Positions 20,724-50,446 of a DNA stretch of 64,000 bases are shown one piece after another; the stretch's first letter is position 1; each line of letters starts with the position of its first letter. This stretch comes from an uncultured Actinomycetes bacterium. Its GTDB lineage: Bacteria; Actinomycetota; Acidimicrobiia; Spongiisociales; DATADW01. The notes below the pieces were generated by a model. The model saw nothing but the letters and a program-made list of their open reading frames with translations. It did not search any database and was not told the DNA's origin. A program made the translations under genes and the position numbers. Location: assembly GCA_963824995.1 (NCBI GenBank), contig CAWGRK010000001.1, positions 139,094-203,093 of the forward strand, in the 5' to 3' direction.

Positions 20724-20738
20724 CCGTTGTAGGAGGAT

Positions 20739-21612: not shown

Positions 21613-21618
21613 CGACCA

Positions 21619-21792
21619 TTGGCAGAGCGCAAGGCCTTCCTCCTACGAATCGATCCCCAGGTGCACGCCGCCCTGGAGAAGTGGGCCGCTGACGAGCTAC
21701 GCAGTCTCAACGGCCAGATCGAGTTCCTGTTGACTCAGGCGCTGCGCGATGCGGGGAGGGAGCGCCACACCGAGCGGTCGAAGGAGGGCTGA
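21619..21792 (+). CDS. Arc-like ribbon-helix-helix DNA-binding protein (57 aa; not in the ORF track)
   Basis: TTG start; [38 protein letters not shown]. Confidence 0.85.
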
Positions 21793-21795
21793 GCT

Positions 21796-25560: not shown

Positions 25561-26178
25561 TCCCGCCTCCTCTTCAACCACCGTCCCGAAAGGTTGGAAG
25601 GCGGGGACCGGCCCGGAAACGCCAAGGCGGTCCTTGATCGCCCAGTCGAAAGACGTGGCCCCACCGAACCGACGCTGCAGATCCTCGGCCACGATCACCT
25701 CGGGCTCTTCGGCCAGTAGCCAGGCGACCATCGCCTCGGCGCGCTCGGGGGTCAGGCCCTCGACCAACTCGTAGTTGATCTGGACGGCGGGGGCACCGCC
25801 GCAGGCGCCGATGCACTCGACGTGCTCCACCGACACCCGGCCATCGGCGCTGGTCTCGCCGTGGGGCACCCCGGTGACCTCCTCGACTGCGTGGAGGACG
25901 TCGTCCCCACCGAGCAGCATGCAGCTGATCGAGGTGCACACCGACACCAGGTAGCGGCCGACCTCGGGTTTGTACATGGTGTAGAAGCTGGCAACAGCGA
26001 GAACCTGCGCCGGGGTCTGCCCGGTGAGCTCGGCGACCTGGGCCATCCCTTCGCGGGTGAGCCGGCCGTCGTGACGCATGGCCAGATAGAGAAGGGGCAT
26101 CGTCGCCGAGCGCTTCTCCGGGTAGGAGGCGATCAGCGCGGCGGCCCGCTCCAGCGTCTGGGGCGACCAGCGGCTCAC
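25557..26178 (-). CDS. nuoE: NADH-quinone oxidoreductase subunit E (reads into nuoF as assembled)
   Basis: VASFYTMY, VCTSISC and ECIGACGGAP supply the 2Fe-2S ligands. Confidence 0.92.
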
Positions 26179-26259
26179 TGCGTGGAGACTAGAGAGCGCT
26201 CTGGGGGTCTCCCAATCACAAGTCGGCAATGAAAGCCTCACCGGGAGGGGCAGACCCGG

Positions 26260-27927: not shown

Positions 27928-27985
27928 GGTCGAGCAGCGTATCTGGACACGGTCGCTATATCGGCCGGTAGCGTGGCAACCCCAT

Positions 27986-28008
27986 GCTGGTGGAGCGGGA
28001 CCACCAGC
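27986..28008 (-). terminator. GC hairpin downstream of nuoD, possible terminator
   Basis: GCTGGTGG-N7-CCACCAGC 8-bp stem about 55 nt after the nuoD stop; no U-tract. Confidence 0.35.
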
Positions 28009-28061
28009 TGGCTCGGCTTCACGATCTACGTAGTGCTGCCGTCGCTCGGAGGCGGAGATAC

Positions 28062-29450
28062 CTAGCGGTCGACGTCTCCCATCACCGGGTCGAGCGAAGC
28101 GATGGTGGCCACGGTGTCGGCGACCAGCGAGTCGGCCATCATGATGGGGAGGGCTTGGAGGTTGGCGAAGGACGGGGCGCGGATGTGGCACCGCCATGGC
28201 TTGGCGCTGCCGTCGGAGACGATGTAGCACCCCAACTCACCACGAGGAGACTCGACCGCCTCGTAGACCTCGCCCTCGGGAACCTTGAAACCCTCGGTGA
28301 AGATCTTGAAGTGGTGGATCAGCGCCTCCATCGACTCGTCGATCCGGGCCCGCGGTGGTGGCGTCACCTTGCGATCCTCGGTACGCCAGTCGCCGAGGGG
28401 CATCCGCTCCGCCACCTGACGCGCGATCCGAAGCGACTGAAGGATCTCCTCGACACGGATCAGATAGCGGTCGTAGACGTCGCCGTTCTCACCGGTGATC
28501 ACATCGAAGTCGTACTGCTCGATGCCGGAGTAGGGCTGGGTCTTGCGGAGGTCCCAATCCACGCCTGCCGAGCGGAGGGTCGGCCCAGTGATCCCGTAGC
28601 CGAGGCACTCCTCGGGGGTGATCACCCCGATGTGTCGGGTTCGCTCCAGCCAGATCGGATTGTGCTTGAGCAGGTCGTCGTACTCGCCCAGCTTGGCGGG
28701 GAGGATCTCGATGATGTCCTCGACGTCGTCTTCCCACCCGGGTGGCAGGTCCGCAGCCACTCCTCCCGGACGGATGTAGTTGTGGTTCATCCGCAAACCC
28801 GTGACCTTCTCGAAGAAGGCGAGGACCGTCTCCCGTTCGCGGAATCCGTAGAGCATCATCGAGATGGCGCCGATGTCCATCCCGTTGGTGGCAAGGGCGA
28901 CGAGATGGCTCGACACCCGGTTGAGCTCGGTCATGAGGATCCGTATCGCCTGGGCGCGGGGCGGAACCTCAATCTCGAGCAGACGCTCCACCGCCATCGA
29001 GAAGACCAACTCGTTGTGGAGCGGCGCCAGGTAGTCCATCCGGGTGACGTTGGTGGGTCCCTGGAGGTACGTGAGGGTCTCTCCCGTCTTCTCCATCCCG
29101 GTGTGGAGATAGCCGATGATCGGCTTGGTCCGCCTGATGATCTCCCCCTCCAACTCGACCTGGAGCCGGAGGACGCCGTGGGTCGAGGGGTGCTGGGGCC
29201 CCATGTTGACGATCATGCGCTCGTCGTCGGGTGATTCGGACTCGATGATGTAGTCGTCACCTACGACGGTGCCCAACTGCTCGGCGAGCCGGGCGCCGGA
29301 CTCCACCTGCTCCATCTCCTGGCTGCCTTCGTCGGTGGAGCGGAGCATCCAATCGCTCTCCTCGCTCCCCGCCACCCACATGTCGGCGACCCGGGTCTCG
29401 GGCGGATCTTCGACCGCGGTGGTGACGTCTCGGTCGTCTTCGCTGGACAT
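28062..29450 (-). CDS. nuoD: NADH-quinone oxidoreductase subunit D
   Basis: NMGPQHPSTHGVLRL, IGYLHTGMEK, ESPRGELG and DPVMGDVDR. Confidence 0.96.
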   Translation of the reverse strand: MSSEDDRDVTTAVEDPPETRVADMWVAGSEESDWMLRSTDEGSQEMEQVESGARLAEQLGTVVGDDYIIESESPDDERMIVNMGPQHPSTHGVLRLQVELEGEIIRRTKPIIGYLHTGMEKTGETLTYLQGPTNVTRMDYLAPLHNELVFSMAVERLLEIEVPPRAQAIRILMTELNRVSSHLVALATNGMDIGAISMMLYGFRERETVLAFFEKVTGLRMNHNYIRPGGVAADLPPGWEDDVEDIIEILPAKLGEYDDLLKHNPIWLERTRHIGVITPEECLGYGITGPTLRSAGVDWDLRKTQPYSGIEQYDFDVITGENGDVYDRYLIRVEEILQSLRIARQVAERMPLGDWRTEDRKVTPPPRARIDESMEALIHHFKIFTEGFKVPEGEVYEAVESPRGELGCYIVSDGSAKPWRCHIRAPSFANLQALPIMMADSLVADTVATIASLDPVMGDVDR

Positions 29451-29976
29451 CACACCACCTTGGGAGCGCCCTTGAACTGCACCGGGACCGCCCCCACCTG
29501 ATAGTCCTTGCGCAGTGGGTGGCCGATCCATTCGTCGGGCATCAGGATCCGTGTCATGTCCGGATGGTCGGTGAACTCGATCCCGAACATGTCGAACACC
29601 TCCCGCTCGAAGAAGTTGGCACCGGGCCAGATCGGAGTCAGCGAGGGAATCTCCGGCTCGTCGGCGGGCACCGGGACACGCAGCCGGAGGCGCAGGTTGT
29701 GACGGTGAGACAGAAGGCCCGCCACCACCTCGAAGCGGATCGGCCTGGTGCGAAGGAAGTCGACCGCGGTCACGTCGACGCATACCTCGAAACCGGTGTC
29801 ACGCGCCGACTCGGCCAACCGTTGGAGCGTCTCTCGGGGCACCACCGCCACGTTCTGACCGAGCGATGGCGCCCACTCGACATCCTCGAACGGCTCGAGC
29901 AGGTCGCGCAGAACGGGATGCTCTGGCAGTGCCCGGGCCGGTGGCTCTTCCTCGGTCGCAGTCTCGTTCGTAGTAG

Positions 29977-29980
<4 letters not shown>
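29450..29980 (-). CDS. nuoC: NADH-quinone oxidoreductase subunit C (start uncertain)
   Basis: [19 protein letters not shown] and GHPLRKDY. Confidence 0.92.
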
Positions 29981-30458
<478 letters not shown>

Positions 30459-30462
<4 letters not shown>

Positions 30463-30578
30463 CAGGCTGCTTCCTTGTTGGTGCGGGGGGACGACCCCCC
30501 TGCACCCCCCGACCGCGAACGGCTCGGGCACGGAACAACGGGGACGAGGGCGCTCGCATCCATCAGGCTGCTTCCTTG
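30459..30578. mobile_element. 82-bp palindromic insert flanked by a 19-bp direct repeat at the nuoA/nuoB junction
   Basis: CCATCAGGCTGCTTCCTTG at 30459-30477 and 30560-30578; internal hairpin GTGC-G6-ACGA-C6-T-GCAC at 30481-30505. Confidence 0.7.
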
Positions 30579-30976
30579 CCCGACTCGACCTGTGCCTGGT
30601 AACGGGCACGGCGAGGGACGTTCCAGTCGAGAGCCCCACGCCGCCATACGTAGACCAGCGTCTCCAGCACGAGGAGGGTGAAGATGCCGATCGCCACCAC
30701 TCCGTACCAACCGAGTTCGGTGAAGCGGGATGCCCAGGCGAACAGGAAGATGATCTCGACGTCGAAGATGACGAACAGCATCGCCACCAGATAGAACTTG
30801 ACCGGGAAGCGCTGCACCGGCTCGACCTCGGGGACGATCCCGCACTCGTACGGCGCCAGCTTCTCCGGCGTGGGCTTCTTGGGCGACAACAGGTAGGAAG
30901 CGCCGAGCGACACCGCCACGAAACCTGCGGCGAGCAGGAACATGAAGGCGATCGGGAGGTATTCGCCGAGCTCCAA
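30563..30976 (-). CDS. nuoA: NADH-quinone oxidoreductase subunit A
   Basis: [23 protein letters not shown] and RRGALDW. Confidence 0.95.
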
Positions 30977-31040
30977 AGTTCGCTCCTCTCTGATCCTCAG
31001 CCTAGGAACCGGGCAGGGTTAGCTCCAAGACCAGACCCAG

Positions 31041-31180
31041 GACGGCGGACGGCAGTCGGCAGACGGCAGACGGCAGGTAGTCATGCATCTTCTCGGACAC
31101 ATACCTGAAGGGGGGTGATGAGAGACCAGTCACCCCTCCTCTCGCTCCGCTCGCGCCACCCCCCACCGGGGGAGGGCTGA
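31041..31180. repeat. Composite element upstream of nuoA: degenerate (GACGGCR)5, CTCGCTCCGCTCGCGCC and a C/G-tract hairpin
   Basis: Array at 31041-31075; the 17-mer at 31141-31157 is the exact reverse complement of 15940-15956. Confidence 0.7.
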
Positions 31181-34820: not shown

Positions 34821-36233
34821 ATGGCGAGGGCACGATTAGGTATCACGGCTACTGCTGTCTGGTGGCTGGTGATTGCCGTCGCCGCCCCGGCGGCCGCACA
34901 GCCCGGCGGCACATTCGTCGACGACGACGGCAACCATCACGAGGGGATGATCGAGGCGATCTTCGCCGCCGGTATCACTCTCGGTTGCGACCCTGCCGCC
35001 GACAATCTCTACTGCCCAAGCGATCTGGTCACCCGTGGGCAGATGGCCTCGTTCCTGGTGCGGGCGCTCGAGCTCTCGGGTGGATCTGACGCCTTCAAAG
35101 ACGACGACGGGTCGACCCACGAGGAAGCGATCAACGCCCTGGCGGCGGCCGGGATCACCGAAGGGTGCGCCTCCGACAAGTTCTGCCCTTCCGACCCGGT
35201 CACCCGGGACCAGATGGCGAGCTTCCTGACCCGCGGATATCAGCTCGCTCCGAGCGCCACCGATTTCTTCGACGATGACGACGGCAACATTCACGAGGAC
35301 GCCATAAACGCACTGGCGGCTTCGGGTATCACCGAAGGTTGCGGGGCCACCAGCTACTGCCCTCGTTCGTCTGTCGAACGCGACCAGATGGCGAGCTTCC
35401 TGGGGAGGGCCGAAGGTCTTACTGCGGCGAAGCCGCCCTTGCGCAGGATTGGATGGCAACTCCACCGGGGCGACGGGAGCTGTGCCCTGGTGGTCAATGG
35501 GATCGAGTTGTCGGAGATCTCTTGCCAGTTCGGAGGGTTGTCCTGGTCGCCCGACGGGGAGCGGCTCGTTTTCCCCATCGACGACGATTTGTGGCTTATC
35601 GACCGCACCGGGGACAACCTCACCCAACTCACGTCGCAGCCGGGATTCGAGGCCTTCCCCGACTGGTCGCCCGACGGAGCGCGCATCGCCTTCATCCGCT
35701 TCGCAGACGTCGATGACATCGGGGACCTCCACATCGTGGACGCCGACGGCGGCAACGATCTGCTGCTCGTCGCGGGTGTCCCGAAACGCGCCATCAGCAT
35801 GCCCGACTGGTCTCCTGATGGGACGCTGCTGGCGGTGAATGGCTTCGACACGCAGAGCGGCGGAGCGGGAATATTCACCGTCGATGCGGTGAGCGGCGCC
35901 GTCGAACTCGTGGTCGAGGGTGTGGGAGGAGGGCCTGACTGGTCGACCGACGGGAACAGCATCCTCTCGACGCGGATCATCGGCCCCAGGCTTGTGATCA
36001 CCCGGGTCGCCGCGGACGGCAGTGGATCCGTCGACCTGACCGACGCCAGCTTCAGCTCGGCGTTCCCGGGGTGGTCTGCCAACGGAAACCAGGTCGTGTT
36101 CACCACCCATCTCCCCAACTCGCCGGCCGCCGGCCCAAACAACGTCTGGATCATGAAGGCCGCCGGGACCGGCATGTTCCGGTACACGTACTACGAGGAC
36201 GCATCGACGACGTTCCCCAAGTGGGCACCCTGA
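34821..36233 (+). CDS. Secreted S-layer-homology protein with TolB/PD40 beta-propeller
   Basis: Signal peptide; three F.DDDG..HE..I...GIT.GC...CP...VTR.QMASFL repeats; WSPDG repeats. Confidence 0.88.
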   Translation: MARARLGITATAVWWLVIAVAAPAAAQPGGTFVDDDGNHHEGMIEAIFAAGITLGCDPAADNLYCPSDLVTRGQMASFLVRALELSGGSDAFKDDDGSTHEEAINALAAAGITEGCASDKFCPSDPVTRDQMASFLTRGYQLAPSATDFFDDDDGNIHEDAINALAASGITEGCGATSYCPRSSVERDQMASFLGRAEGLTAAKPPLRRIGWQLHRGDGSCALVVNGIELSEISCQFGGLSWSPDGERLVFPIDDDLWLIDRTGDNLTQLTSQPGFEAFPDWSPDGARIAFIRFADVDDIGDLHIVDADGGNDLLLVAGVPKRAISMPDWSPDGTLLAVNGFDTQSGGAGIFTVDAVSGAVELVVEGVGGGPDWSTDGNSILSTRIIGPRLVITRVAADGSGSVDLTDASFSSAFPGWSANGNQVVFTTHLPNSPAAGPNNVWIMKAAGTGMFRYTYYEDASTTFPKWAP

Positions 36234-37526: not shown

Positions 37527-39913
37527 TCACCTGGGCAGCGCGGCGCTCCAGAACCCTGCTTGACCCAGGTATTGGCCGACGATGACGATCCTCCCTTGGA
37601 AGACGGCGATGTCGTTGACCGACTGCTGTCCTTCGGGGGCGAGGAAGACCTCATCGGGGAGCTGGGTGGCCTGCCATGCCTGTGCCGCCGGACCGGCGCG
37701 GTAGAGGATCGGCCGGGTGGCACCGTCCACCGCGGCGGTGCCCACCGCGTAGAACCGACCTTCCTTGTCGGAATCGACTCCGAGCACCGCCCCGTTGGCA
37801 CCGATGATCAGATCGGGATCCTCGATGCGGCGGTAGCGACGGCCATCCTTGGTGATCCAGACCGCCGGGTTGGACTGTCGCCCCGAGACCTGGCCCACCA
37901 CCACGACCGAGCCAGCGCCTGGTGTGCAGTCGTAGATCGCAGAGCCATCGGGATGGAATGTCCCCGGCGGGGCGCTCTCCGTCCAGGCGCGCCCGTCCCG
38001 GCTGGTCCAGGCGGTCGCCTGAGTCTCGTCTCCGGTCACCACCGCGCCGAAGGCCACCCAGCGGTCCCCCAACGGGCATACCACCTCGGCGCTCACCCAT
38101 TGTTGGTAGCCGGGACCACTGGCGCGTTGCCAGGCACCTGGTTTGGTGGCGAACCAGAAGCGCGGGTTGAAGCTGTCCGCCCCGGTTCCCTCGTGCCCGA
38201 CGGCCACCGCGGTGCTACCACCCGCCACGTCGAGCATACGGGTGGTGTTCACCGAGGCGGTCCCCTCCGATCGTTGCGGCGGGGACCAGGAGCCATCGGA
38301 CCGGGACCAGGTGATCGGGTTGACCTGGTCGGTGGCGATGAAGAGCGTGGTGAAGACGTCGTGGCCGACAAGGACCTGACGCCCCGCCTGGGCGGCAGCG
38401 GCGCTGACGACGGCGTCGCCGAACTGGGCATCGCTGGTCAGACGGGTGTGCCTGCCATCGGTGCTCACCCACACCAGCGCCCCGAGATCGGCCGGGTCGG
38501 CACCCACCTGTCCTCCGGCTATGACCAACTGGCCCCGGGCTACCTCGGCAGTCCCGGCATACCGCGTGGGGGTTTCCTCGGGCAGCGCCCCGCTGACCAC
38601 CTCGGCGGTGGAGTCGCCCTCTGCGGCCACCAGGACCGGTCGGGTGGGGTCGGAGGTCGCCGCCAGCGCTCGCGACCCGGCGGAGGTGAGAAGATCGACC
38701 GCCGGGCCGGCGGGGTCGGAGAGCCCGAACGGCAGGACCGCCTCGTTCCAGGATTCGCCGTCGTTGGAGCGGAGCAGTACATAGACGGCGTCTATGTAGG
38801 CGGTCGCCCACCATTGGTTCGCCGCCCCCGCTCAGCGATTCGAAGGACTCGCCGTAGCTGTTGTACAGGGTCCGACCCGTGGTGCTGACCGACGGGGGAC
38901 TCGGCAGCCCATTCGCCCTCAGACCGACGCCATACCGTCGGGTGGTAGCCGTCAGATCCGAGCGTTCCCCCCACCGCCAGCGCCTCACCTGAGTCGGTGG
39001 CCACGCCGGTGACAACATGCCCGTTGCCGGCGAAAGTCTCGGTCCGCCAGCTCCCTCCGTTTGGCAAGCGCCATACGGTCCCTCGGCGACGGTCTCCTGA
39101 CTGGACGGTGCCTGCCACCAGGATCCCTTCGTCGCCCACGGAGACGCTGGAGACGTCGGCTGCAGGGGCGGCGGCGAGAGCGCTCTCCAGACCACGGTCG
39201 CGCCGCCAGTCGCCGCCATCACGGCTGCGGAGCACTACCCAGGGTTCGTCGGTGGGATTGGTTGCCGTGCCGAGGACGATGAACCCGCCCGGCCCGCCGG
39301 CCACCTCGGAGAGTCGAAGCCCGCCCGGCACCCGGAGGATCGCTGCGGTCACCCTCTTCAGTGCACCGCCGTCGCGGCGGACATAGAGGAGACCGGCACC
39401 GCCCACCCCCGACCCCGACTGTCCGGAAGCGACGAGAACGTCTCCCCTGGAGGCGACACCGAGAAGGCGACCGCCGTTGGGCGAGTCGAGCATCTTGCGC
39501 CGCCACGAGGTGCCATTGGGGGCCGACCACACCGTCGGGTTTGGGTTGAGGCTGCGTCCGAAGGTCGTCCCGACGGCCACCCAGCCACCGCTTGGGAGGG
39601 TGGCGACATCGGCGTACCAACCACCGGGGGTGCCTGCGGTCAGGTTGGCGGCTTGGGAGCGAACCCAACGGAGCTCGGGAGGGGGCCCCGGTGTTCCGCC
39701 ACCGGCGTCGACCTCGGTGGTGCTGGTCGGACCGGTGCGGTCCGTGGTCGATGATGACCTATCGCCGGTCGTCGACGACGAGTCATCGCCAGGCGACGTC
39801 TGCGCTTGCGTCGAATTCTCGTCAGGCTGTATGGCGGATCCGCCGGTGACTGGCTGGCTGCAAGCAGCGGTAACGCCGACGCAGAGCACCACAATCAATC
39901 GACGAACACTCAC
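37527..39913 (-). CDS. Large lipoprotein with repeated W-x-S-x-DG (Asp-box-like) propeller motifs (frameshifts 38700-38880)
   Basis: Lipobox VTAAC; S/T linker; WSAPNG, RSRDG, WVSTDG, WTSRDG and WITKDG repeats. Confidence 0.65.
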
Positions 39914-40017
39914 ACCGTCTCCCAACGGTTGCAGCGTTGGCAGGGTACCAGTCACGTCCGGCGCTCCATGTGCACTCCGGCGGAGCGCCTACTGGGACGA
40001 TCTAACGTCCTGATTCG

Positions 40018-40638
40018 ATGCGCCGTCCGATCCCCCGAGCCACGGTGGCCCGGTTCCCCCTTTACCTCCAGGCGCTGGAGAGCATTGGCTCGGATGAGCC
40101 CACGGTCTCATCCGAACGGGTGGGGACACTCACCAACGTGACCGCTGCCAAGGTGCGCAAGGACCTCTCCTACCTCGGATCGCAGGGGGTCCGGGGTGTC
40201 GGGTACGACGTCGAGCACCTGCGGGGCAGGATCGAGCGCGAGTTGGGGCTGACCCACGACTACCCGGTTCTCATCGTCGGCGTCGGCAACCTGGGTTCGG
40301 CCCTCGCCAATTACAAGGGCTTCGCCGAACGTGGGTTCTTCATCGCCGGGTTGTACGACGCCGACCGCCAGAAGGTCGGGCGCCGAGTCGACGGTCTTCG
40401 AATCCGCCACATCGACCAGTTGGAGGAGGATGCCTCCCATCTCGGCGCCGCCATAGGAATCATCGCCACCCCCGGTGGTGCCGCCCAGGAGGTGGCAGAG
40501 CGTCTGGAACGCGCCGGTGTCCGCTCGATCCTCAACTTCGCCCCAGCCACGATCCGGGTGGCTCCACCCGTGGTGGTCCGCTCGGTGGACCTGTCGACGG
40601 AGTTGCAGATACTGAGCTACTACTTGAGCAGGGCGTGA
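40018..40638 (+). CDS. rex: Redox-sensing transcriptional repressor Rex
   Basis: IPRATVARFPLY, KVRKDLSYLGSQGVRGVGYDV, VGVGNLGSAL and ILNFAP. Confidence 0.96.
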   Translation: MRRPIPRATVARFPLYLQALESIGSDEPTVSSERVGTLTNVTAAKVRKDLSYLGSQGVRGVGYDVEHLRGRIERELGLTHDYPVLIVGVGNLGSALANYKGFAERGFFIAGLYDADRQKVGRRVDGLRIRHIDQLEEDASHLGAAIGIIATPGGAAQEVAERLERAGVRSILNFAPATIRVAPPVVVRSVDLSTELQILSYYLSRA

Positions 40639-40712: not shown

Positions 40713-41066
40713 TTAGGCCCGTTCCTGGTTCTGCTCGAAGCGGGCGAGAGCGGTGAGGAACATGGCGAAGAGGATGCCCGAGGCGAGCATGTAGGCCATG
40801 GGGATGATGCGGATCTCGAAGGCGTTGAGGCCCTCGATGTCCACAGGGCGGGGACCGCGAGGGGCGTAGAGGACGAAGAGGAGGCTGTTGATCGTGATCC
40901 ACCCGAACGTGGCTGTGCCCGTCAGCAGGAAGGCGAGGCGGCTACCCAGGTTGGTGTAGAGCAGCAGGTATACGGCGCCCAGGAAAACGATGATCGCCAC
41001 CAACACCAAGAGCACACCGGTAATGGTGAGATTGGCCGAGAGGATGCTCCGGAACAGCTCGCGCAT
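40713..41066 (-). CDS. Small 3-TM membrane protein, last gene of the Rieske/cytochrome b operon
   Basis: GGAGG SD; three hydrophobic segments; starts 2 bp after the cytochrome c stop. Confidence 0.75.
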   Translation of the reverse strand: MRELFRSILSANLTITGVLLVLVAIIVFLGAVYLLLYTNLGSRLAFLLTGTATFGWITINSLLFVLYAPRGPRPVDIEGLNAFEIRIIPMAYMLASGILFAMFLTALARFEQNQERA

Positions 41067-41068
41067 CT

Positions 41069-42770
41069 CTACCTCCCGGTGAGCGTGGGACCGCGCAGGT
41101 AGCGGGTGATCAACTCGATGTCCTCCTGTTGGAGCACCTGGCCGAAGCCGGGCATCCGGCCGGTGCCCATGCCGTTGACGCCGTAGCCGATGTTGGCCTC
41201 TGACCCATTGATGAGAAAGTCGATCATGTCGGCCTCGTCGGTGAACTGCACGTTTGGCCGGTTGTTCCAGAGGGCGGGGCCGAGTCCGCCGGCGCCCGCC
41301 TGCAGCGTGAAGGGCACGCCGGCCGACCAATCGGAGGTGTGGCAGCGGGCGCAGTAGGCGTTGAAGAGGCCTACTGCCCTCGATGCCTGATCGACGTCGC
41401 CTTCGAAGGTCGCCTCGGCCACGGCGTCGACATCAACCTCCCAGGCCTTCTCCTCCTGCGCGCTGAGAAGGAAGTCGAGACCCTGCTGCGTCTGTTCGGT
41501 GAGTCGTTCTTGGTTGGCTGCGGACACGCCGAGCGACGTGGCAAGCGATTCGAGGGCGCTCACCGCTTGGCGGGCCACGACGATATCCGGCTGGGAGCCA
41601 TCGGTCTGCGGGTTCTGGGGGTCCAACGCGACGGCGGGAAGCTCGGTCGGCTCGAGCAGTTGCTGGGCCTGTGCGAGCAGAGACGAGATGCGGTCCTCCG
41701 CAGCATCCGAGAGTCCGTCGCCGTCGAGATCCTCGCCATCTCCAGCCTCGTCGAGGGCAGTTGCGGCGTCCTCTGCCACCAGACGCAGTGCGGGAGCCTC
41801 TTCGGCCACCTGCTCGAGCGACGCCACCATGGCTTCGGCGGTTTCGGCGTCCGGGGTCCCTTCCACCGACTCGGGGCTCTCGGGATCGAGCGTCTCGACG
41901 AGGAGGCCCTCGGGGACCAATGCCGCCCTCGTCTCGTCAACGATCTGGACGAGTTCGGTCTCGGCTGTGTCCGACAGACCGTCGCCGTCGGCGTCAACAC
42001 CCTCTCCACCGACCTCCACCAACTCGGCGGCACGCGGTGGCGGCATCGAGCGCCGCCGGCGCCCGACCGGGCGCCGCCGCGATGTCGGCGAGCAACTGCT
42101 CCTGATCGACGATCGCCTGATCGACACTGCGGTCGGCCTGGTTGAGCCGCTGCAGTTGCAGGTCCACAGAAGGGTCGATCTTGGCCAATGCCGCCTGCTG
42201 GTCGATCTGCTGGGTCCGCAGATAGTTGATCACATCGGATATCTGCTGCTGGTCGAGCGGACCACCACCCTCGGTCCCCCAAGCGGGCATCGGGGTGTTG
42301 GCTCGCCCGTAGACGATCCAGTAGCGGATCTCTTCGTCGTTGTAGCGGAAGAACACGTCGTTGAGCGCAGGGGCGGCCCAATTGACGTTGATCCCACTCC
42401 TCTGTTCGACGTAGCTGGCACCACCACCGCTCCAGTCGGCGCCGTGACAGTCGGTGCAGCCCACCGAGGCGACCACCTCGGCGCCCCGCTCGAGCGACTC
42501 CTCGTTGAACTGCTCGACGAAGCCAGCCTGCCTGTCCTGCTCGCCCAGGTAGTAGATGGGGAGATAGAAGGCGAGGAAGCCGGTGAGCACCACGGCCGCC
42601 GCCTGCACCTTCTCGAGCCGCTTGCTCTCGAGCTCGTCGTCGGTCTTCCCGGGGGCGACATTGCGTGGCACATCCCCGCTGCTCCGGTTGCGGATGCTGG
42701 AGGCGACGAGGAAGGCGAGCCAGCCCACGACGAGCACGGCCACCACCGCGATGACGATGGTGGCGGTCAA
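41069..42770 (-). CDS. Membrane-anchored diheme cytochrome c (frameshift near 42030)
   Basis: Two TMs; CTDCH with PMPAW; CARCH with RMPGF. Confidence 0.85.
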
Positions 42771-42795
42771 CAGACCTCCATCAGGATGGCGCCCA

Positions 42796-43704
42796 CTACT
42801 CCTCCGCGGGGACTTCCTCGGTGACGATGCCGATGCAAGACGGACCCTGGGGATACTCGACCACCCGATCGGTGGCCCGGGCGGTCTCCACGATGGTGCC
42901 GGTCTTGATGACCAGGTTGCCTTCGATCACCTCGACGCCGAAGCGGTCGAGGTTGCGTGGTGCCGGACCGGCGAAGTACTCGCCGACCGAGTCGTACTTC
43001 GATCCGTGGCAGGGGCACTCGAATCCCTGCGATGGCTGACACCAGGGGACCCGGCATCCCAGGTGGACACACCGCTGATACAAGGCGATGAGCCCTTCGG
43101 CGGAAGTGTCGGTGTCGGCGAACTGCGACCGCGCCAACTCCTCTTCGGAGATCGGCAGGATGTAAGCGCGCGCCGACGGGATGAACACCGGTGTGACCGA
43201 CCCATCGGGTTGGACCAACTCGGTCGACAGGTCCTCCACAGAGCCAGCCACGACATCGCTGCCAAAGCCGCCCGAGATCTTGGGCCACACCATCGCCAGC
43301 ATCGAGACGCCGAGGATCGCCGAGAAAGCACCAAAGGTGGCGGTCAACGCCCGGTTGAAGAACTGACGGCGTGTCACGCCCATCTCCTCAGGAGAAAGCT
43401 CTTCGAACCGCTCCTCCTCGACCACCCGGAGCGGACCTTGCTCCACGGGTTGCAGCACCCCCGCCTCCGGTTCGGGCGCGGGAGCAGGAGCCTCCTCCTC
43501 CACTTCCACCTCGGGGGCGCCGACCGTGACCAGAGCCATGGGGCCATCGGTGCGGTCCGCAGCGACCGTCTCCCTGCTCACGGTACGTCTCCATGCCTGC
43601 TGGGCATCCTTGGACCCGCGCCTGGCTGCGATGGCGAAAGCGCCGACGGCGGCTGCGATGCACACCACGGCGATAGCGAGCAGCAGCAGCTGGAGAGTCG
43701 TCAT
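42796..43704 (-). CDS. Rieske 2Fe-2S subunit of a menaquinol:cytochrome c reductase
   Basis: CVHLGC and CPCHGS boxes, GPAPRNL, and an internal TRRQFF twin-arginine motif. Confidence 0.93.
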   Translation of the reverse strand: MTTLQLLLLAIAVVCIAAAVGAFAIAARRGSKDAQQAWRRTVSRETVAADRTDGPMALVTVGAPEVEVEEEAPAPAPEPEAGVLQPVEQGPLRVVEEERFEELSPEEMGVTRRQFFNRALTATFGAFSAILGVSMLAMVWPKISGGFGSDVVAGSVEDLSTELVQPDGSVTPVFIPSARAYILPISEEELARSQFADTDTSAEGLIALYQRCVHLGCRVPWCQPSQGFECPCHGSKYDSVGEYFAGPAPRNLDRFGVEVIEGNLVIKTGTIVETARATDRVVEYPQGPSCIGIVTEEVPAEE

Positions 43705-44830
43705 TCGAACGAGATCCAGTCCGACAGATCGTCGAAGAAGATCCCGTCTGACCATGGGTAGGAGAAGTTGAACCCCTGGCCCCGGAAGAGGACTCCGATG
43801 ATGGTGAGGGTGGTCGCCCCGGCGAGGAAGAAGGTGAACATGATGATGGCGAACTTCCGGTCGGATGGCTTGGTGGACGGGTTGCGGTCGAAATAGGGGA
43901 CCGCCATCAGACCGATGAGCCCGAAGGTCGGCACCAGGACCCCGGCCACCTGGGGGTCGAAGTAGGAGAGCAACTCCTGAAGCCCGAGGAAGTACCACGG
44001 CGCCTTCGACGGGTTCGGAGTCTCGTTGAAGTTGGCCGCCTCCAGAAGGGGCGCCTGGAGGACGACCGACATGACGACCAGCAGGCCGGTCATCGCCAGC
44101 AGGCTGGCGAACTCGGCGATCATCAGATGGGGCCAGGTGTTTACCTTGTCGGTCGGCTCGGTCTTGACCTGCTGGATCGCCTTCGCCTTGACAACGGTGA
44201 GCAACCGTTGAGTGCGAACCCCTTCGGGCACTCCGGTCGGCGCCGCCACCGGCCTGGCAGCGACCGCCGCGGCCACCCGCCCAGCACCGGCTGCGGCAAC
44301 GGGGACGGGTTCTTCGTCGTCCGCTCCCCCGTCGGGAGCGCCGGCACCATTGCCCGCAGGGGGAGGCGTGGATGAACCGGCGCCATCGCCGCCGACAACC
44401 GGCTGGGGCTGCTCCGCCGCCGGTGACTCAACCTCCGCCGCCGGCTCGGGCTGCTCTGCCTCCGCCGCCGGTGACTCAACCTCGGCCGCAGGCTCGGGCT
44501 GCTCTGCCTCCGCCGCCGGCTCAGGCTGGTCAGCTTCGGCGACCGCTTCCGGCTGCTCCACTTCGGCGGCGCGCTCAACCTGCTCAGCTTCAGCAGCTGG
44601 CTCCACCTGTTCGGCTTCGGCTGCTGGAGCCTCTTCCGCGGGATCGTCTGCCGTCCGCCGTCCGCCGTCCGCCGTCTCTTCCGGAGTTGCCGTCTCTTCC
44701 TCCGCCGTCTCCTCCTCTGGGGCGTCGCCTCCCCCCGCATCTCGGCGAGCACTTGCTCGACCGGGATGCCAAGCGCTTTCGCCTTGGCCTCGGCCGACCG
44801 GCGGAGCAGGCTCTCGGGAATCTCAGGCAT
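43701..44830 (-). CDS. Cytochrome b6 subunit IV-like (PetD-like) protein with a long acidic N-terminal extension (frameshift near 44720)
   Basis: TWPHL, TPNPSKAPWYFLGLQELL and PYFDRNP; three TMs. Confidence 0.85.
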
Positions 44831-44839
44831 AGAAGCTCC

Positions 44840-45646
44840 TCACAGCGGTCCCGAGATCCCGCCATCCTTCCGGACCCGCCAGAAGTGGACGGCCATGAAG
44901 ATGACGATGATGAAGGGGAGGAAGAGGACGTGGAGCACGTACCACCTGAGCAGGGTATTGGCAGTCACCTCGGCTCCACCGAGTAGAGCGAACTTCACCT
45001 GGGCACCGAACACCGGGACGAAACCAGCCATGTTGGTCCCCACGGTCACAGCCCACAGCGCCAATTGGTCCCAAGGGAGCAGGTACCCGGTGAACGACAG
45101 GAGCAGGGTCAGGAGCAGGAGTACGACCCCGACTATCCAGTTGAACTCACGCGGTGGCTTGTAGGCGCCGTGATAGAAGACCCGGCTCATGTGGAGGAAC
45201 ACGGTGAGCACCATCAGGTGCGCCCCCCAGCGGTGCATGTTCCGCACCAGCGAGCCAAAGGCGACGCTGGTGGAGAGCGCCTGGGCATCGGCGTAGGCCT
45301 GGGTGGCGGTCGGCGTGTAATAGAACATGAGGAAGATGCCGGTGATGGTCAGCAGGATGAAGAGGAAGAAGCTGAGCCCACCAAGGCAGAGCGTGTAGGA
45401 GAGTCGGACTCCGTGCCGCTTCACCTTCACCGGGTGCAGGTGGTACAGCACGTTGTTCATGATCACGTACGAGCGGTTGCGCGGCGTGTCGGTGTAGCCC
45501 TGCTTGAAGGGCGACCCGGGGCGGAACACCGACTCCCAGAGCGACGAGGTGCGCATCTTGTCGCCCGCCTCGCCCATCCGTTCGCGGAGTCTCAGCCCAC
45601 CGTTCCCGTTCCCGTTGCCGCTGCCGTTGCCGTTTGCCATCACCAC
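44840..45646 (-). CDS. Cytochrome b6-type split cytochrome b (PetB-like N-terminal part)
   Basis: [13 protein letters not shown]...[16 protein letters not shown]...H; ends GISGPL. Confidence 0.93.
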
Positions 45647-46083
45647 CTAACCCCATAGGTGTACCCGTTCTTGAAATCTCGCTGGCCGGTGTCTACCTCC
45701 CATGGCACAAGACCGGCCTCCGCCGCCTGTTGCGCCAGCGATCCCTCGAACTTTCCGAGGGTGATGACGTTTGTCGGGCAGCGGTCTACGCACAAGGCGC
45801 ACCTGGTGCACTCGTCTTCGTCCACCACGAAGAACCCGTAGTTGGTGCCGTCACCCTTCGGATCGGACACCCCCACCGCCTCGGTGATCGCCTCGAGCGA
45901 GAGGTAGTGGATGCACTTCCACGGGCAGATGTCGACACAGCCCTCACAGAGGATGCACTCCGACTGGTCGATGTGTAGGAACTGCTTGGGTCGCAGCTTG
46001 TCCTTGAAGTAGTCGGTCTCCACCAGTGCAAGCTGGTAGTCGTCACGGAAGGGAGGGGTCTCGTCGACCACACCGCGTGGCAT
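45640..46083 (-). CDS. 2[4Fe-4S] ferredoxin
   Basis: [12 protein letters not shown] and [12 protein letters not shown]. Confidence 0.9.
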
Positions 46084-46691
46084 CAGTCGTCCATCCGGAT
46101 CAACGGCCGGCCATATGGCGAGGTGCGGGCCTTTGGCTCATCGCCGCCGGGGGGAATCTTCCCCCAGTCCTGGAGGAGGTAGGCGACCACGATCCAAGCG
46201 GCGAACACCACCACGTAATAGCCGCCGGAGATGGCGTCCTTGATCACCCCGGAGCTGATCTCGACCTCGTTACCGAGTACCAGCCAGGGAGGGATGGTGA
46301 AAGCGATGTTCTGGCTCGTCCAGCCGAGCGGGCCCTGGCTGAGGTTGAGCCACTCCGAGGGGACCACGCCGAAGAGGAGGACGAACTCGATCCAGGTGAT
46401 AAAGGCACCGAACGAGGCACGGGCCCATGTGAGGGGTTGGTTGGCGACCCAGATCATGGCGGCACCGAACAGCATCATCTGCGAGCCGGCGAAGGCGATC
46501 AATTGGCCGGCGGTGAACCACAGCCAGCCCCGGGGAATGAAATCGAAGATACCGCGATCGACCTCCGGCGGGAGGAGGGCGAAATGGGCAATCAGGACGC
46601 CCAACACGATCGCTGGGATACCGAGCAGCAACGCGGCCCAGCCGAGCCTCAACCGCTGCGACTCGTCCAGCCGGCTCAGTCGGGCGATCAC
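46083..46691 (-). CDS. Uncharacterised 4-TM membrane protein, first gene of the cytochrome b operon
   Basis: Hydrophobic segments; TGATG overlap with the ferredoxin; C-terminal SPYGRPL. Confidence 0.7.
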   Translation of the reverse strand: MIARLSRLDESQRLRLGWAALLLGIPAIVLGVLIAHFALLPPEVDRGIFDFIPRGWLWFTAGQLIAFAGSQMMLFGAAMIWVANQPLTWARASFGAFITWIEFVLLFGVVPSEWLNLSQGPLGWTSQNIAFTIPPWLVLGNEVEISSGVIKDAISGGYYVVVFAAWIVVAYLLQDWGKIPPGGDEPKARTSPYGRPLIRMDD

Positions 46692-46872
46692 CTCAGGTCC
46701 CCTGCTCCTTCCCTGACGGCAGCCGGTTGGCGCCGCCGCACCGGTACGGCCCCATCCTTGCACACGCTGGTAAAACGCGGGGAATCGCGCCCCGCTCGAT
46801 GGAGCCCCAGATGACGACCCTCTTCAGCGGCTACCCGGCTCGTTATCCTCCGGCGACCATGGAGGGATCGGC

Positions 46873-48291
46873 ATGACCGAAGATCAGGACTCCGCCGCCC
46901 GCCTCCATCTCTTCGCCTCGGTTGCGTTCGCGGTGGCCGCCGGTGTGCTCCTGGTGGCGCTCTTCCTTTCGCTGCGATTCCCGGACGCCGTCGGGCAGCT
47001 ACCCCAACTCACCTATGGGCGGCTCAAGCCGATGATGCTCACCACGGCGGTGCTCGGTTGGTTGACGCTGGCCGGCATCGGCGCCGTCTACTACCTGCTT
47101 CCCCGGCTGACCGGTACGCCGATGTGGGGTGAGCGCATCGCCCGGCTCAACCTCATGGCGGCCATCCCGATCTATGCGGCCGCCTCGCTCTCACCGATGT
47201 TCGGGCTCTCGTCGGGTCAGGACCTGCTCGAGGTCCCCTGGTATCTCGACCTGCTGGTTCTGGCGACGCTGGCTGTTCCACTCGGAGTCACCGTCCAAAC
47301 GCTCCGGCGCCGCACCGAGGAAGGCATCTACGTCTCGCTCTGGTATGTGGTGGCCGGGGTTTTCGCCGCATTCGGACTCTGGCTGGTGGGCAACATCCCC
47401 GGCGTCATCGGGGACCTGCCCGGGCTCGGCGGGATGACCACTGCCCTCCAGAGGGTGATGTTCTCCTCGGGGTTCCTCACGCTTTGGGTCGTTGGGATCG
47501 GTATCGGTACCGCTTACTACCTGCTCCCCAAGGAGACGGGGAACCCACTCTTCAGCCGGGGCCTGGCGGCGGCAGGGTTCTGGTCGGTCGTGCTGGCGGC
47601 GCTGTGGGCGGCGCCATCAGCCCTCACCCATACCCCGATTCCCGGCTGGACACAGACCGTGGCGGCGGTGATGGCGCTCGGACTGGTGATCCCGGCACTG
47701 GCCGTTGCCACCAACTTCGCCGGGACGCTCCACGGCAGGTGGGATACGTTCACCAACTCGCTACCGGTCAGGTTCGCAGTGGCTGCCACCTCGTTTCTCG
47801 TGCTGGTCACGCTCGCCTCGGCGGGGAGGGGGTTCCCATCGGTGTCGACCGTCGTCGGTTTCACGCCCACCGCTGACGCCGTACTCATCGTCACCGTCTT
47901 CGGTGTCGCCGGTCTCTTCTCCGCCGCCTTCACCTATCACGCCATTCCCCGCATCGCCGGCAGGCAGGTGTTCAGTACCTTCTCCGGGCGGCTCCACCTG
48001 CGGATGGCGGCACTGGGAAGCGCCGCCCTCGGGATCCTGCTCTGGGTCACCGGGACCGTCACCGGTTACACCTGGGTGGGAGCCGCCCGAACCGGAGCGT
48101 TCGTGGCCGCCGGAGAGGGTTGGGCGGAGGTGGAGGGCTCGACCCTCGTCTTCACCAGCCTGCTGCCGCTCGCCGCCCTCCTCGTCGCGGTAGGGCTGGC
48201 AGCCTTCGGGTACAACGTGCTCAGGTCGTACACCTCCGGGGAGACGGTGCCCCAAGAGGTGCTGGTGGCGTCTGGGACCGAAGATGGCTGA
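46873..48291 (+). CDS. CcoN-like (cbb3 subunit I fold) protein lacking the heme/Cu histidine ligands
   Basis: TYGRLKP, YYLLPRL, IYVSLWY, YYLLPKETGNPLFS and PGWTQT align with CcoN; intact 472-aa ORF; ligand His positions substituted. Confidence 0.8.
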   Translation: MTEDQDSAARLHLFASVAFAVAAGVLLVALFLSLRFPDAVGQLPQLTYGRLKPMMLTTAVLGWLTLAGIGAVYYLLPRLTGTPMWGERIARLNLMAAIPIYAAASLSPMFGLSSGQDLLEVPWYLDLLVLATLAVPLGVTVQTLRRRTEEGIYVSLWYVVAGVFAAFGLWLVGNIPGVIGDLPGLGGMTTALQRVMFSSGFLTLWVVGIGIGTAYYLLPKETGNPLFSRGLAAAGFWSVVLAALWAAPSALTHTPIPGWTQTVAAVMALGLVIPALAVATNFAGTLHGRWDTFTNSLPVRFAVAATSFLVLVTLASAGRGFPSVSTVVGFTPTADAVLIVTVFGVAGLFSAAFTYHAIPRIAGRQVFSTFSGRLHLRMAALGSAALGILLWVTGTVTGYTWVGAARTGAFVAAGEGWAEVEGSTLVFTSLLPLAALLVAVGLAAFGYNVLRSYTSGETVPQEVLVASGTEDG

Positions 48292-49131
48292 CGCCGAACT
48301 CCTCTCCCAAGCCTCGGCAGCGCTCGGTGTCCCCGAGCCCATCGTGCAGCGTTCGGCGGCGGCGAGGGCCACCGCCAACGGCGTGGACGTCGACGAGGTC
48401 CTCCGGGCGTGGGCCGGGGGAGGCGCCGTGGCTGCGGGGACCCCGTCGGAGGCAGCGTCGGAGGGGGCAGAACCGGCAGCGGCGGCTGAGGCTGAGACGG
48501 CTGCGGAAGAGACGGCGGACGGCGGACGGCGGACGGCGGAGGAAGAGGCGGCACCGGAAGAGGCGGCTCAAGCACCGCACCAGCGGCGGCAGCTGTGGCG
48601 GTTCCCGCTGCAGCGTGGCGGTGGCGGCCGCGGTGGTGGAGCGGCCTCGGGTCATTCCGATTCTCGAAGGGTCGCAGGGAGAGCCACTGGAAGCTCATAT
48701 TCGGAGTGGTCGGGTTGCTGACTCTTGGCCTTCTCGGTGGTTGGGTGCTCCCCGCTCTCGACACGCTCGACGACCCCGGAGCGCCGGCCGCCCTCACCGC
48801 AGCCGGGACCGAGGGCCGCCGGATCTATCTGCGCGAGGGTTGCCAGTCGTGTCACACGCAGGTGGTCAGGGCGATCGTGACCGACGCCGGGTTGGGTCCG
48901 GTGTCGAACGCCGGGTCCGTTGCAGGTTTTCCGGGCGACACCATCGGTTCGGTCCGTTACGGGCCTGACCTCACCCACTTCGGGAGCCGTGAGGGAGTGG
49001 ACCTGGCCTCGGTCACGGCCTATCTCCGCAACCCCCGGGCGGCTCGCCCCGAGAGTCTGATGCCGCCGATCGACTACCTGGACGACGCCGAACTCGAAGC
49101 GCTGTCCCAGTTCCTGGTGGAGTCGAAGTGA
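48284..49131 (+). CDS. ccoO: CcoO-like monoheme cytochrome c with an N-terminal helical module and acidic linker (frameshifts near 48560-48680)
   Basis: GRRIYLREGCQSCHTQVVR, GSVRYGPDL and ESLMP. Confidence 0.8.
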
Positions 49132-49153
49132 GGATCGTCCATAGGATGCAGGC

Positions 49154-50338
49154 GTGAGCGACGAACAGCTGGCAGCGGCTGCCGCAGCGCTCAACGCCCC
49201 CGAGGCAATTGTCAGGCGCTCCGCCGAGGCGCGGGCCAAGGCCGACGGGATCCCGGTGGAGCAGGTGCTGACGGCGTGGGCTGGTGGGGAGAGCACACCG
49301 AAGACGGAAGACGGAAGTCGGAAGACGGAAGATGAAGCGGCGCCGCCGCCCGCAGCCGAAGAGACGGCAGACGGCGGACGGCAGACGGCAGCCACTGAAC
49401 GCGACGGCAGACGGCGGACGGCAGACGGCAGCAGAACCAGGAGCGGAGGCACCAGGCGCGGTTCCGGCGGTTCCGGCCGTCGCCGCAGCGGCTGTCGCCG
49501 ACATTCCCGACTTGCCGCCGGCACCGGAGACGGTCTCGCCGGCGGCGGCCATGGATTACCCCGAGGTGATCTCGGTCCCCACCGCCGGGATAAAGGAGCG
49601 GACCGGGGGTGGCGTTCCCGGCTGGCTGACCAGCGTGTTCGTGGCCGTCCCGCTCTTCGCTCTCTTCTACCTCATCTCGAACGCGGGCGGAGTCGAGTGC
49701 GGCGAGGGCGGCGCGCTTGCGGTGAGCCCGATCTCGGGTGAACTGGTCAACTGTGATGGAACCCCATACGAAGGATCGGGCGCCGGCGGCGGGGCGGGCG
49801 GTGACTTCCTCGCCGTGGGAGAACAGGTGTACGCCGAGGTCGCCGCCTGTCAGGGATGCCATGGAGACCAGGGACAGGGCGGCGTCGGGCCGCCGCTGTC
49901 GGGGGGGGCGGTGCTCACCACCTTCGGCAGTTGCGAGGACCACGTCACCTGGGTGCGGCTCGGAACCCAGGGTTGGGCAGCCGAGGTCGGGGAAACATAC
50001 GGGGACAGTGGCAAGCCGGTGGGTGGGGGCGGGACCATGCCCGGGTTCTCCACTCTCAGCGACGAGCAACTCCGGGCGGTCACCTACTTCGAGCGGGTCC
50101 GGTTCGGCGGGGCCAATCCCGAGGAGGCGCTGGCGGACTGCGGCCTCGGCGAGCCGGCGGGCGGTGAGGGTGGAGGCGGTGAGGAAACCGGGACCACTGT
50201 GGTCGGGGAAGATGGGAGCGACCGAGACCACCGTGGCCGGGGAAGAGTGGGGCGACCGAGACCACCGTGGCCGGGGAGGGCGGGGCGACCGAGACCACCT
50301 TGGCCGGGGGCGGCGCCGCCACCACCGCGGCGCCATAG
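49154..50338 (+). CDS. Membrane-anchored monoheme cytochrome c with an N-terminal helical module and Thr-rich tail (frameshifts)
   Basis: One TM; CQGCH; TMPGF; tail ...TETTLAGGGAATTAAP*. Confidence 0.8.
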
Positions 50339-50353
50339 GGCGACAGGTCCCGT

Positions 50354-50446
50354 TTGCGCCCTGCCACCACGTTCGTGATCCTCGCCCTATTGGCGGTCAT
50401 CGCCATCGCCGGAGCGATCATCGCAGTCCAGCTTCTCAGCCGCTGA
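50354..50446 (+). CDS. 30-aa single-TM small protein (not in the ORF track)
   Basis: TTG start; MRPATTFVILALLAVIAIAGAIIAVQLLSR*; GC3-rich codons; 15 bp after the cytochrome c stop. Confidence 0.55.
   Translation: MRPATTFVILALLAVIAIAGAIIAVQLLSR

Follow-up and report, generated by a model that had tools for sequence, protein, structure and literature searches.

What can a cbb3 oxidase subunit do once it has lost every ligand for its metals? The question is raised by a divergent respiratory locus at positions 40,713–50,446 of a 64,000-nucleotide stretch (the window) of contig CAWGRK010000001.1, from an uncultured bacterium of the Acidimicrobiia (genome G000: 2.9 Mb, 85% complete, 66% GC; locus on contig C1). 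Its left arm encodes a Rieske/cytochrome b complex with a ferredoxin, and its right arm, on the opposite strand, a His-less CcoN-like protein (CcoN*), its CcoO-like partner (CcoO*) and a membrane-anchored cytochrome c (Table 1). The locus is a real, conserved system, a complex III–IV chain with a pseudoenzyme, which was not found in the open literature. The twelve genes listed in a preliminary description are all present, in the order and on the strands first given, and Pfam (two Fer4, Cytochrome_B, Cytochrom_B_C, Rieske, two cytochrome c domains, COX1, FixO, Cytochrome_CBB3 and both Rex domains) agrees with the gene content proposed for both arms. Comparisons were made with 41 relatives, 44 genomes of the same order, 151 of the class Acidimicrobiia and 301 of the phylum; counts across related genomes are descriptions and not statistics, since kin are not independent.

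Ligand loss in a retained oxidase fold

Three CuB histidines and a cross-linked tyrosine are a feature of C-family subunit I according to the accessible portions of PMC11214002 and PMC3578206. CcoN* was aligned over its length to CcoN of P. stutzeri (3mk7_A, E 2.4e-28), whose H60, H207, H257, H258, H345, H347 and Y251 correspond to M55, S199, S249, A250, V337, I339 and A243 of the window protein. Among 42 CcoN* homologues from Acidimicrobiia, His was counted 0, 0, 2, 0, 0 and 0 times at the six sites and Tyr not at all; 40 homologues have none of the six His and two have one. By cofactor, the sites of low-spin heme b (two His) and heme b3 (one His) hold His in 0/42 each (M55, V337 and I339 in the window), the CuB sites in 0, 2 and 0 of 42, and the cross-linked Tyr was found in 0/42. 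CcoN* proteins from 45 further loci (2 partial) had none of the His, and in a control of 35 homologues picked for six intact His the Tyr was kept in 34. No conserved alternative ligand was found in CcoN*, M, C, K, D and E occurring in at most 5/42 at any site. With the six His and the Tyr gone in the window and its homologues alike, CcoN* is almost certainly not an O2 reductase, as had been proposed for a metal-less CcoN fold. Heme-copper nitric oxide reductases have a high-spin heme His and an FeB ligated by His plus Glu or Asp; a place for CcoN* among them was ruled out, there being no His and no substitute ligand (≤5/42).

The fold itself is intact. An AlphaFold2 (AF2) model of CcoN* has 12 long helices (predicted local distance difference test score, pLDDT, 92) and was matched by Foldseek to 3mk7_A (TM-score 0.89, root mean square deviation 2.9); the score on TIGR00780 was 163 bits (cut-off 583). 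Dead and live CcoN share Gly, Pro and Trp residues together with R50, E120, Y215, Y216 and N281, and also G49 and P53 in a loop; missing from CcoN* are R57, E122, W203, T215 and S240 (P. stutzeri numbers). The kept and lost residues presumably have roles in Ca2+, propionate and proton handling. In each of the 12 helices the mean side-chain volume is below that of live CcoN, and small residues predominate at the His sites. As the 12-helix fold is complete and the side chains are smaller, so that cavities may stay open, the emptied heme cavities might be used as a quinone or lipid pocket or as a proton, ion or gas conduit. We consider such a use improbable. At the positions which we take to be those of the proton channel (T215, Y223, S240, H243 and Y251 in P. 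stutzeri) only Y223 is retained (35/42), T215 being mostly V or I, S240 mostly A or G, and Y251 absent; the helices have just four conserved polar columns, none of them acidic and two (R57, N281) also present in live CcoN, and the residues conserved specifically in dead proteins are mostly Gly, Pro and Trp. The ion conduit that the preliminary description had offered as an option is accordingly unlikely, judging from the apolar proton-channel positions and the absence of a conserved acidic residue in the helix cores.

CcoN* is under purifying selection at a level like that of neighbouring genes: the ratio of nonsynonymous to synonymous substitution rates (dN/dS) was 0.05–0.21 over seven pairs and 0.075–0.082 within the genus, where the diheme cytochrome c gave 0.085 and the four-helix protein TM4 0.091. 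CcoN* evolves faster than PetB (0.013–0.025), and this difference and its long branches are what a decaying, functionless relic of a cbb3 operon would predict; that explanation of the right arm is highly improbable and largely refuted, because dN/dS lies far below 1 in 7/7 pairs, the frames are full length across the order, and the gene is kept in 12/12 streamlined genomes of about 1 Mb.

In a quick tree of 76 rows, 28 actinobacterial dead CcoN and one other protein formed a single branch of 29 rows with a Shimodaira–Hasegawa approximate likelihood ratio (SH-aLRT) support of 92 (unstarred), and a second dead branch of 13 rows (SH-aLRT 99) fell elsewhere, surrounded by His-intact CcoN; ligand loss outside Actinomycetota was probably independent. 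Homologues with two to five of the six His were also seen (P0092, P0096, P0103, P0151, P0154 and P0171; L099, L111 and L112), and these may represent steps on the way to ligand loss, or new active sites.

Cytochromes of the right arm

As in C-family oxidases, a CcoO-type cytochrome is adjacent to CcoN* or fused to it. CcoO* was recognised by FixO of Pfam and by 3mk7_B (E 4.7e-13), retains the GPDL motif, and is a single open reading frame (ORF) in the congener G001; CcoN* and CcoO* are fused, without the N-terminal tag described below, in 9 of 20 loci of relatives. The conserved loop residues and GPDL motif and these fusions are the reasons for regarding CcoN* as a scaffold that has kept its CcoO-facing surface. 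The 3' end of the cytochrome c gene is uncertain owing to a 34-bp repeat at 50187–50309.

A different anchored protein stands at the cytochrome c position in family f51 (L117:16663–17445 in G179; L118, L119, L129 and L130), in which a cupredoxin with type-1 copper ligands precedes a geranylgeranyl-reductase (GGR) gene; its anchor resembles that of the cytochrome c, which looks like a swap of cytochrome c for blue copper. In 5/5 genomes compared from family f16 (genomes of 0.9–1.1 Mb; 34–36% GC in six loci) and in G030 (loci L056–L060 and L042), the 5' ends of ccoO* and of the cytochrome c gene share 171–235 identical bases (6/16 pairs), and such identity within a genome suggests gene conversion between the two tags.

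Linkage and distribution of the two arms

With PetB as query, CcoN* was found in 45 of 80 loci and was divergent and upstream in 45/45. With CcoN* as query, orthologous petB, whole or in part, adjoined in 33 of 34 relatives (a count that includes the unpublished G021), the exception lying at a contig end. CcoN* was found in 35/41 relatives and in 53/151 class genomes, among them 12/12 f16 genomes (0.9–1.1 Mb). In the 44 same-order genomes both arms were present in 38, neither in five, PetD only in one and CcoN* only in none, which bears out the earlier claim that the arms are linked and co-occur; the five without either arm have no COX1-family gene at all. CcoN* occurs in other classes too: among 13 His-poor loci fetched there, the left arm is divergent within the stretch in six, with cytochrome c biogenesis genes in between, compared with 0 of 5 loci having five or six His. 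Among 14 loci of other classes, four have coxBA itself in the position of the right arm.

Two further explanations of the right arm were weighed. It might let electrons in or out for redox partners on the outer face (inorganic donors, say, or another acceptor) without taking part in transfer from complex III to IV; two c hemes face outwards, and a cupredoxin on a similar anchor replaces the cytochrome c in the five f51 loci. Such a port is improbable, for no partner enzyme co-occurred in the loci examined, the arm is kept in 1-Mb genomes, and it is missing in the five genomes that have no heme-copper oxidase. Nor do we think it at all likely that CcoN*–CcoO*, instead of carrying electrons, helps c-type cytochromes or the oxidase to mature or assemble. 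That role would suit the position of ccoN* directly behind genes for cytochrome c biogenesis (resABC or ccm-like), seen in G045, G050 and other classes of actinobacteria, and the heme A/O synthesis genes downstream in G179; set against it, CcoN* has no conserved His, Cys or Met for heme, the res genes occupy the same place even without CcoN*, and none lie between the arms in the order of the window's organism or in the 1-Mb genomes.

A b6/subunit IV-type Rieske complex

The left arm is, by its sequence motifs, a b6/subunit IV-type Rieske complex with every cofactor ligand intact. PetB is a short cytochrome b with H138, H152, H239, H254 and C87LGG, subunit IV is separate and carries KAPWYF (a PxWY-like Qo motif), and the Rieske boxes read CxHLGC and CxCHGS, as in b6f and b6c complexes. 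The top PDB matches of PetB are cytochromes b6 (E 4e-49); it exceeds the NCBIfam cut-off for ExtP (307 against 290 bits) and scores 115 bits on QcrB (cut-off 500). Together with the cluster motifs of the ferredoxin, these features agree with the b6-type Rieske/cytochrome b complex plus ferredoxin of the preliminary description. In G000 (85% complete) short PetB is the sole cytochrome b matched, and neither the unsplit long QcrB of qcrCAB, nor a bd oxidase, nor an NrfD-type alternative complex III (ACIII) was found. We infer that the left arm would act as a menaquinol:cytochrome c oxidoreductase with a Q-cycle. For TM4 and for TM3, the last gene of the arm, no Pfam or NCBIfam family scored above cut-off, and the atlas neighbours of TM4 are unnamed Actinomycetota clusters.

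PetD was matched in 140/151 class genomes (a few matches are paralogue-level). In 20 PetD loci from genomes without CcoN*, the seven-gene order of the left arm is complete in 18, the other two being a paralogous locus and a contig end, and 13 have a lone divergent cytochrome c. The genes fdx, TM4 and petB stand together in 77/80 loci; the ferredoxin was matched in 112/301 phylum genomes and adjoins petB in 14/14 loci from other classes. This breadth, the gene order kept without CcoN* and the spread of the ferredoxin indicate that in many deep-branching actinobacteria the left arm is simply the usual complex III, and that it is not peculiar to this locus. A 2-oxoacid:ferredoxin oxidoreductase was found in 5/5 genomes checked, so electrons from reduced ferredoxin could be taken up at heme ci; by analogy with b6f (in the available part of PMC5600118) such entry is probable, and it is the weakest step of the scheme set out below.

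Family f7 has a reduced TM4–petB–petD locus at the usual place, near the S-adenosylmethionine (SAM) gene, rex and GGR (L265:1011–3855 in G452; L263 and L264 in G032). No ferredoxin, Rieske protein, cytochrome c or CcoN* was detected there, which makes it a Rieske-less b6/subunit IV pair, and its PetD has at least three tags. Additional cytochrome b paralogues, and a second gene of the COX1 family (E about 1e-95), are present in many same-order relatives.

A shared tag and the caa3 oxidase

On contig C10 of G000 lie ctaB, coxB (with a CuA motif and a C-terminal heme c), coxA, coxC, coxD and ctaG. CoxA has every His motif intact and the HPEVY Tyr, and this A-family caa3 is the only His-intact terminal oxidase found in G000; a search for one elsewhere in the genome had been suggested in the preliminary description. 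A hidden Markov model (HMM) built from 77 copies of the tag in 20 loci matched exactly four of 48,847 G000 ORFs, each at E <1e-15: the starts of PetD, CcoO* and the cytochrome c, and TagTM, a tagged protein of the cox cluster (396 aa, about seven transmembrane (TM) helices) that is convergent on ctaG. The tag is about 45 aa long and occurs in one to five copies on long, variable, acidic Ala/Pro/Glu linkers; being N-terminal to the first TM helix, the tags are predicted to be cytoplasmic. In G044, G030 and G035 the same four kinds of protein are tagged (G030 has three more matches at E >0.01). TagTM adjoins cox genes in 19 of 20 loci (in the other the contig is too short), is the last, abutting gene of a coxBACD–ctaG operon in 4/4 f16 genomes, and has no Pfam family.

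In G050 the left arm is followed divergently by resABC, ccoN*, coxBACD, ctaG, ccoO*, the tagged cytochrome c, a GGR-family gene (probably menJ) and nuoAB, and ccoN* is fused to three TM helices and a cupredoxin. The three-helix segment is also encoded by the gene after ctaG in G429, G419 and G185; a profile of three such segments matched the C-terminus of TagTM in hhalign (94.9%, 86 columns), a match between hydrophobic sequences and so of moderate weight, and an HMM of the TagTM body did not match the G050 segment. The tag was assigned to no family in NCBIfam, PDB, fold or atlas searches. Its model is all-helical (best fold match Z 5.4), and it lends no backing to a ribbon-helix-helix fold, since it contains no strand. 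AF2 of two natural tandem tags gave blocks of pLDDT 76–93 with a predicted template modelling score (pTM) of 0.39 and no confident packing between tags, a result that weighs neither way.

Proposed scheme and its weight

On balance we lean towards a scheme in which CcoN* would be a scaffold in a tag-linked chain of complex III, relay and caa3. The locus would be the front and middle of the lineage's aerobic chain: the left arm would oxidise menaquinol in a Q-cycle, and electrons would pass from Rieske to the diheme cytochrome c, on to the monoheme cytochrome c and CcoO*, then to heme c/CuA of caa3 and O2. CcoN* may be the former catalytic subunit of a b6c–cbb3 pair that kept its CcoO-facing surface as a membrane scaffold for the c hemes. 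The three-helix tags of about 45 aa, on flexible linkers, would loosely tether complex III, relay and complex IV through PetD, CcoO*, cytochrome c and TagTM, and the ferredoxin may provide a cytoplasmic electron entry at heme ci. The scaffold reading of the preliminary description fits the ligand loss in a kept fold, the purifying selection and the CcoO-facing features. Its picture of two joined arms holds for their linkage and was incomplete: most of the class has the left arm without CcoN*, and caa3 would be a third partner, because a cox-cluster protein carries the tag and because of the operon and fusion in G050. A physical III–IV supercomplex is a candidate arrangement on genomic evidence. 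That a widespread actinobacterial lineage, apparently with the streamlined, marine Ca. Actinomarina among its members, uses a tethered assembly, with a repeated docking domain instead of helix packing and a dead oxidase as adaptor, is a more tentative proposition.

Several observations weigh against the scheme. No CcoN* was matched in 98/151 class genomes, most of which have the left arm; the left arm thus usually works without CcoN* (PetD in 140/151, CcoN* in 53/151), and the CcoN* module is dispensable elsewhere. CcoN* and coxA do not always go together: G140 and G513 (95% and 94% complete) have CcoN* and no coxA was found in them, and the fragmented assemblies G161, G031 and G032 have coxA without a CcoN* match. 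The sixth-ligand position of CcoO* holds Met in 14, His in 13 and Gln in 2 of 29 sequences, a poor fit with a fixed redox potential on the electron path. As to the tag, only two tagged proteins were found in G034 (and two weak ones in G050), families with fused CcoN*–CcoO* gave no full-length TagTM match, a short tag core (IPEHLLxRS) occurs on PetD and the divergent cytochrome c even in genomes without CcoN*, and in G032 and G452 several tags stand on PetD of the reduced locus that lacks CcoN*. Finally, the match of the G050 fused segment to TagTM, one between hydrophobic helices, fell to 29% in single-sequence hhalign.

A less probable explanation takes up some of these points. The arms would be co-regulated and not physically joined, the right arm would consist of separate carriers or an electron buffer, and the tag would be a targeting, assembly or turnover signal for a common factor. 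The persistence of the tag, even multiplied to one to five copies, where CcoN* and TagTM were not found would be explained, as would the long, variable linkers and the varying sixth ligand; near identity of CcoO* and cytochrome c tags in 6/16 cases is expected for one common binding partner. Speaking for joined partners are the restriction of the tag to respiratory proteins, namely those of the relay and of complexes III and IV, the operon and fusion in G050, and the strict linkage of the arms.

Gene models and neighbouring genes

The genes of the preliminary description exist as such; missed there were frameshifts in four genes of the G000 assembly (diheme c, PetD, CcoO-like and cytochrome c; three of these within low-complexity linkers), and the common tag at the true starts of the last three was not mentioned. 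In the congener G001, PetD (tag and core), CcoO* and the N-terminal part of the cytochrome c each run in a single frame; the diheme cytochrome c is one ORF in G004 and other relatives, and the extra base near 42035 is missing in G004 and in one contig of sequencing run X4. As congeners read through, the frameshifts are most likely sequencing or assembly errors; coxA of G000 is likewise split. A heptamer, GACGGC(A/G), recurs in short arrays within linkers and between genes (the genome has 103 such arrays and the window 10, at 15821, 18732, 20631, 31041, 44645, 48511, 49300, 49362, 52218 and others), where it inserts ADGGRRT segments into proteins; several frameshifts are nearby. In each of 12 sequencing runs less than 0.2 of the sequence words were found; four runs, of DNA and RNA libraries, gave short mixed-organism contigs over both arms, which are uninformative on expression, co-transcription and habitat.

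Table 1. Features of the locus and its borders (window positions).
Feature	Position	Strand	Description and basis
rex, redox-sensing repressor	40018..40638	+	Pfam Put_DNA-bind_N and CoA_binding
TM3	40713..41066	-	117-aa membrane protein without known family; last gene of left arm; position conserved in relatives
Diheme class I cytochrome c	41069..42770	-	Pfam; two N-terminal TM helices, two CxxCH domains with acidic spacer between; extra base near 42035
Rieske [2Fe-2S] protein	42796..43704	-	Pfam Rieske; both boxes; extra N-terminal TM helix, internal twin-arginine anchor (RR motif)
PetD/subunit IV-like	43701..44830	-	Tag 44720–44830, long acidic linker (frameshift near 44680–44720), 3-TM core, PWY at Qo motif
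PetB/cytochrome b6-like	44840..45646	-	Four heme b His, CLGG for covalent heme ci, C-terminal GISGPL
2[4Fe-4S] ferredoxin, predicted cytoplasmic	45640..46083	-	Two CxxCxxCxxxCP motifs; no TM helix by hydropathy
TM4	46083..46691	-	202-aa four-helix membrane protein, first gene of left arm; without Pfam/NCBIfam family
Divergent intergenic region	46692..46872		181 bp, between left-arm TM4 and ccoN*
CcoN*	46873..48291	+	472 aa, 12-helix C-family heme-copper oxidase fold; PDB match, model, alignment
CcoO*	48284..49131	+	Tag 48284–48427, acidic linker (frameshifted), TM helix, monoheme c with CxxCH, Met sixth ligand
Monoheme cytochrome c, membrane-anchored	49154..50338	+	CcoP-like domain; tag 49154–49291, acidic linker (frameshifted), TM helix, CxxCH
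30-aa TM peptide, conserved	50354..50446	+	ORF

A promoter scan of the intergenic region between the arms gave no sigma-70-like promoter. The gene rex adjoins the locus, as first noted, and is near it in 18/20 same-order loci in variable orientation and in 0/6 in 1-Mb genomes. Regulation by Rex was not borne out: over 17 intergenic regions the best match to a Rex operator consensus had 4–6 mismatches of 12, and no operator-like site lies between the arms. rex is probably a neighbour and not a dedicated regulator. The 30-aa peptide, earlier placed in the right arm, is probably not part of it; it was found in 32 of 60 loci having the cytochrome c, behind that gene in 23/32 and not in 9/32, and tracks the SAM hydroxide adenosyltransferase gene, on which it is convergent in 29/32. 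Between the GGR gene and rex are an S-layer-homology protein with a TolB-like propeller (34821–36233) and two neighbouring ORFs (37527–39955) that have propeller-like repeats and belong to no Pfam family. A complex I (nuo) cluster lies 9 kb from the locus, at about 12800–31100, with nuoE and nuoF domains in one ORF (24415–26241), an SPFH/band-7 gene on the opposite strand (20774–21733) and a 48-bp tandem repeat of 3.6 copies (27528–27696) inside it.

Significance and comparison with known systems

A CcoN* homologue (P0011) bears the database name 'cbb3-type cytochrome c oxidase subunit I', a label by which these bacteria, abundant in soil, sediment, sponges and the sea, can be mistaken for microaerobic respirers. 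The complex III of deep-branching actinobacteria differs greatly from that of mycobacteria and has a possible entry for ferredoxin, and the tag, with 45 residues and soluble, offers a cheap and direct handle on how the parts join. Truncated CcoN in heliobacterial or Geobacter operons, a lead followed up in the literature, was not confirmed there. In the open full-text literature (subscription papers and supplements excluded) neither a His-free CcoN nor this operon nor the tag was found described. The available part of PMC12008989 names complexes III and IV with no occurrence of 'cbb', and that of PMC7771536 has no occurrence of 'cytochrome' or 'oxidase'. The accessible portion of a PNAS survey of the superfamily (PMC11214002) presents one family as the first to replace a single active-site His, residues otherwise completely conserved; here, in contrast, an entire conserved CcoN* branch is without any of these His.

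His-less CcoN outside Actinomycetota (P0022, P0024 and P0028–P0031) show the same kind of ligand loss on a separate branch of the tree. With CcoNOP of cbb3 oxidase (P. stutzeri 3MK7) the right arm shares the fold, the gene order N-O-c, a CcoO heme c with GPDL and the occurrence of N–O fusions; it differs in that the six His and the Tyr are gone, the third subunit is monoheme (diheme in cbb3) and cytoplasmic tags are present. The left arm resembles b6f/b6c complexes and the Geobacter ExtP-type short cytochrome b (described in the available part of PMC5600118) in its four-helix CxGG cytochrome b, separate three-helix subunit IV with a PxWY-like motif and Rieske protein, and is set apart by an operon-encoded 2[4Fe-4S] ferredoxin, two unknown membrane subunits, a tagged PetD and the lack of cytochrome f. 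Actinobacterial bcc-aa3 (QcrCAB-Cta), an obligate III2IV2 supercomplex, likewise has a monoderm host, a diheme c on complex III and an A-family oxidase, and membrane-anchored carriers are the rule in monoderm actinobacteria (both in the accessible part of PMC8361435); the present system has instead a split cytochrome b with a heme ci motif, a caa3 oxidase, an extra relay, a ferredoxin, TM3 and TM4. In the bc1–cbb3 supercomplexes (R. capsulatus 6XKW, P. aeruginosa 8SMR; available part of PMC8361435) a Rieske/cytochrome b complex also stands beside a CcoN fold with a membrane-anchored c link, but CcoN is catalytic there, whereas in the system described here CcoN* would be inert, complex III is b6-type and the catalyst would be a separate caa3.

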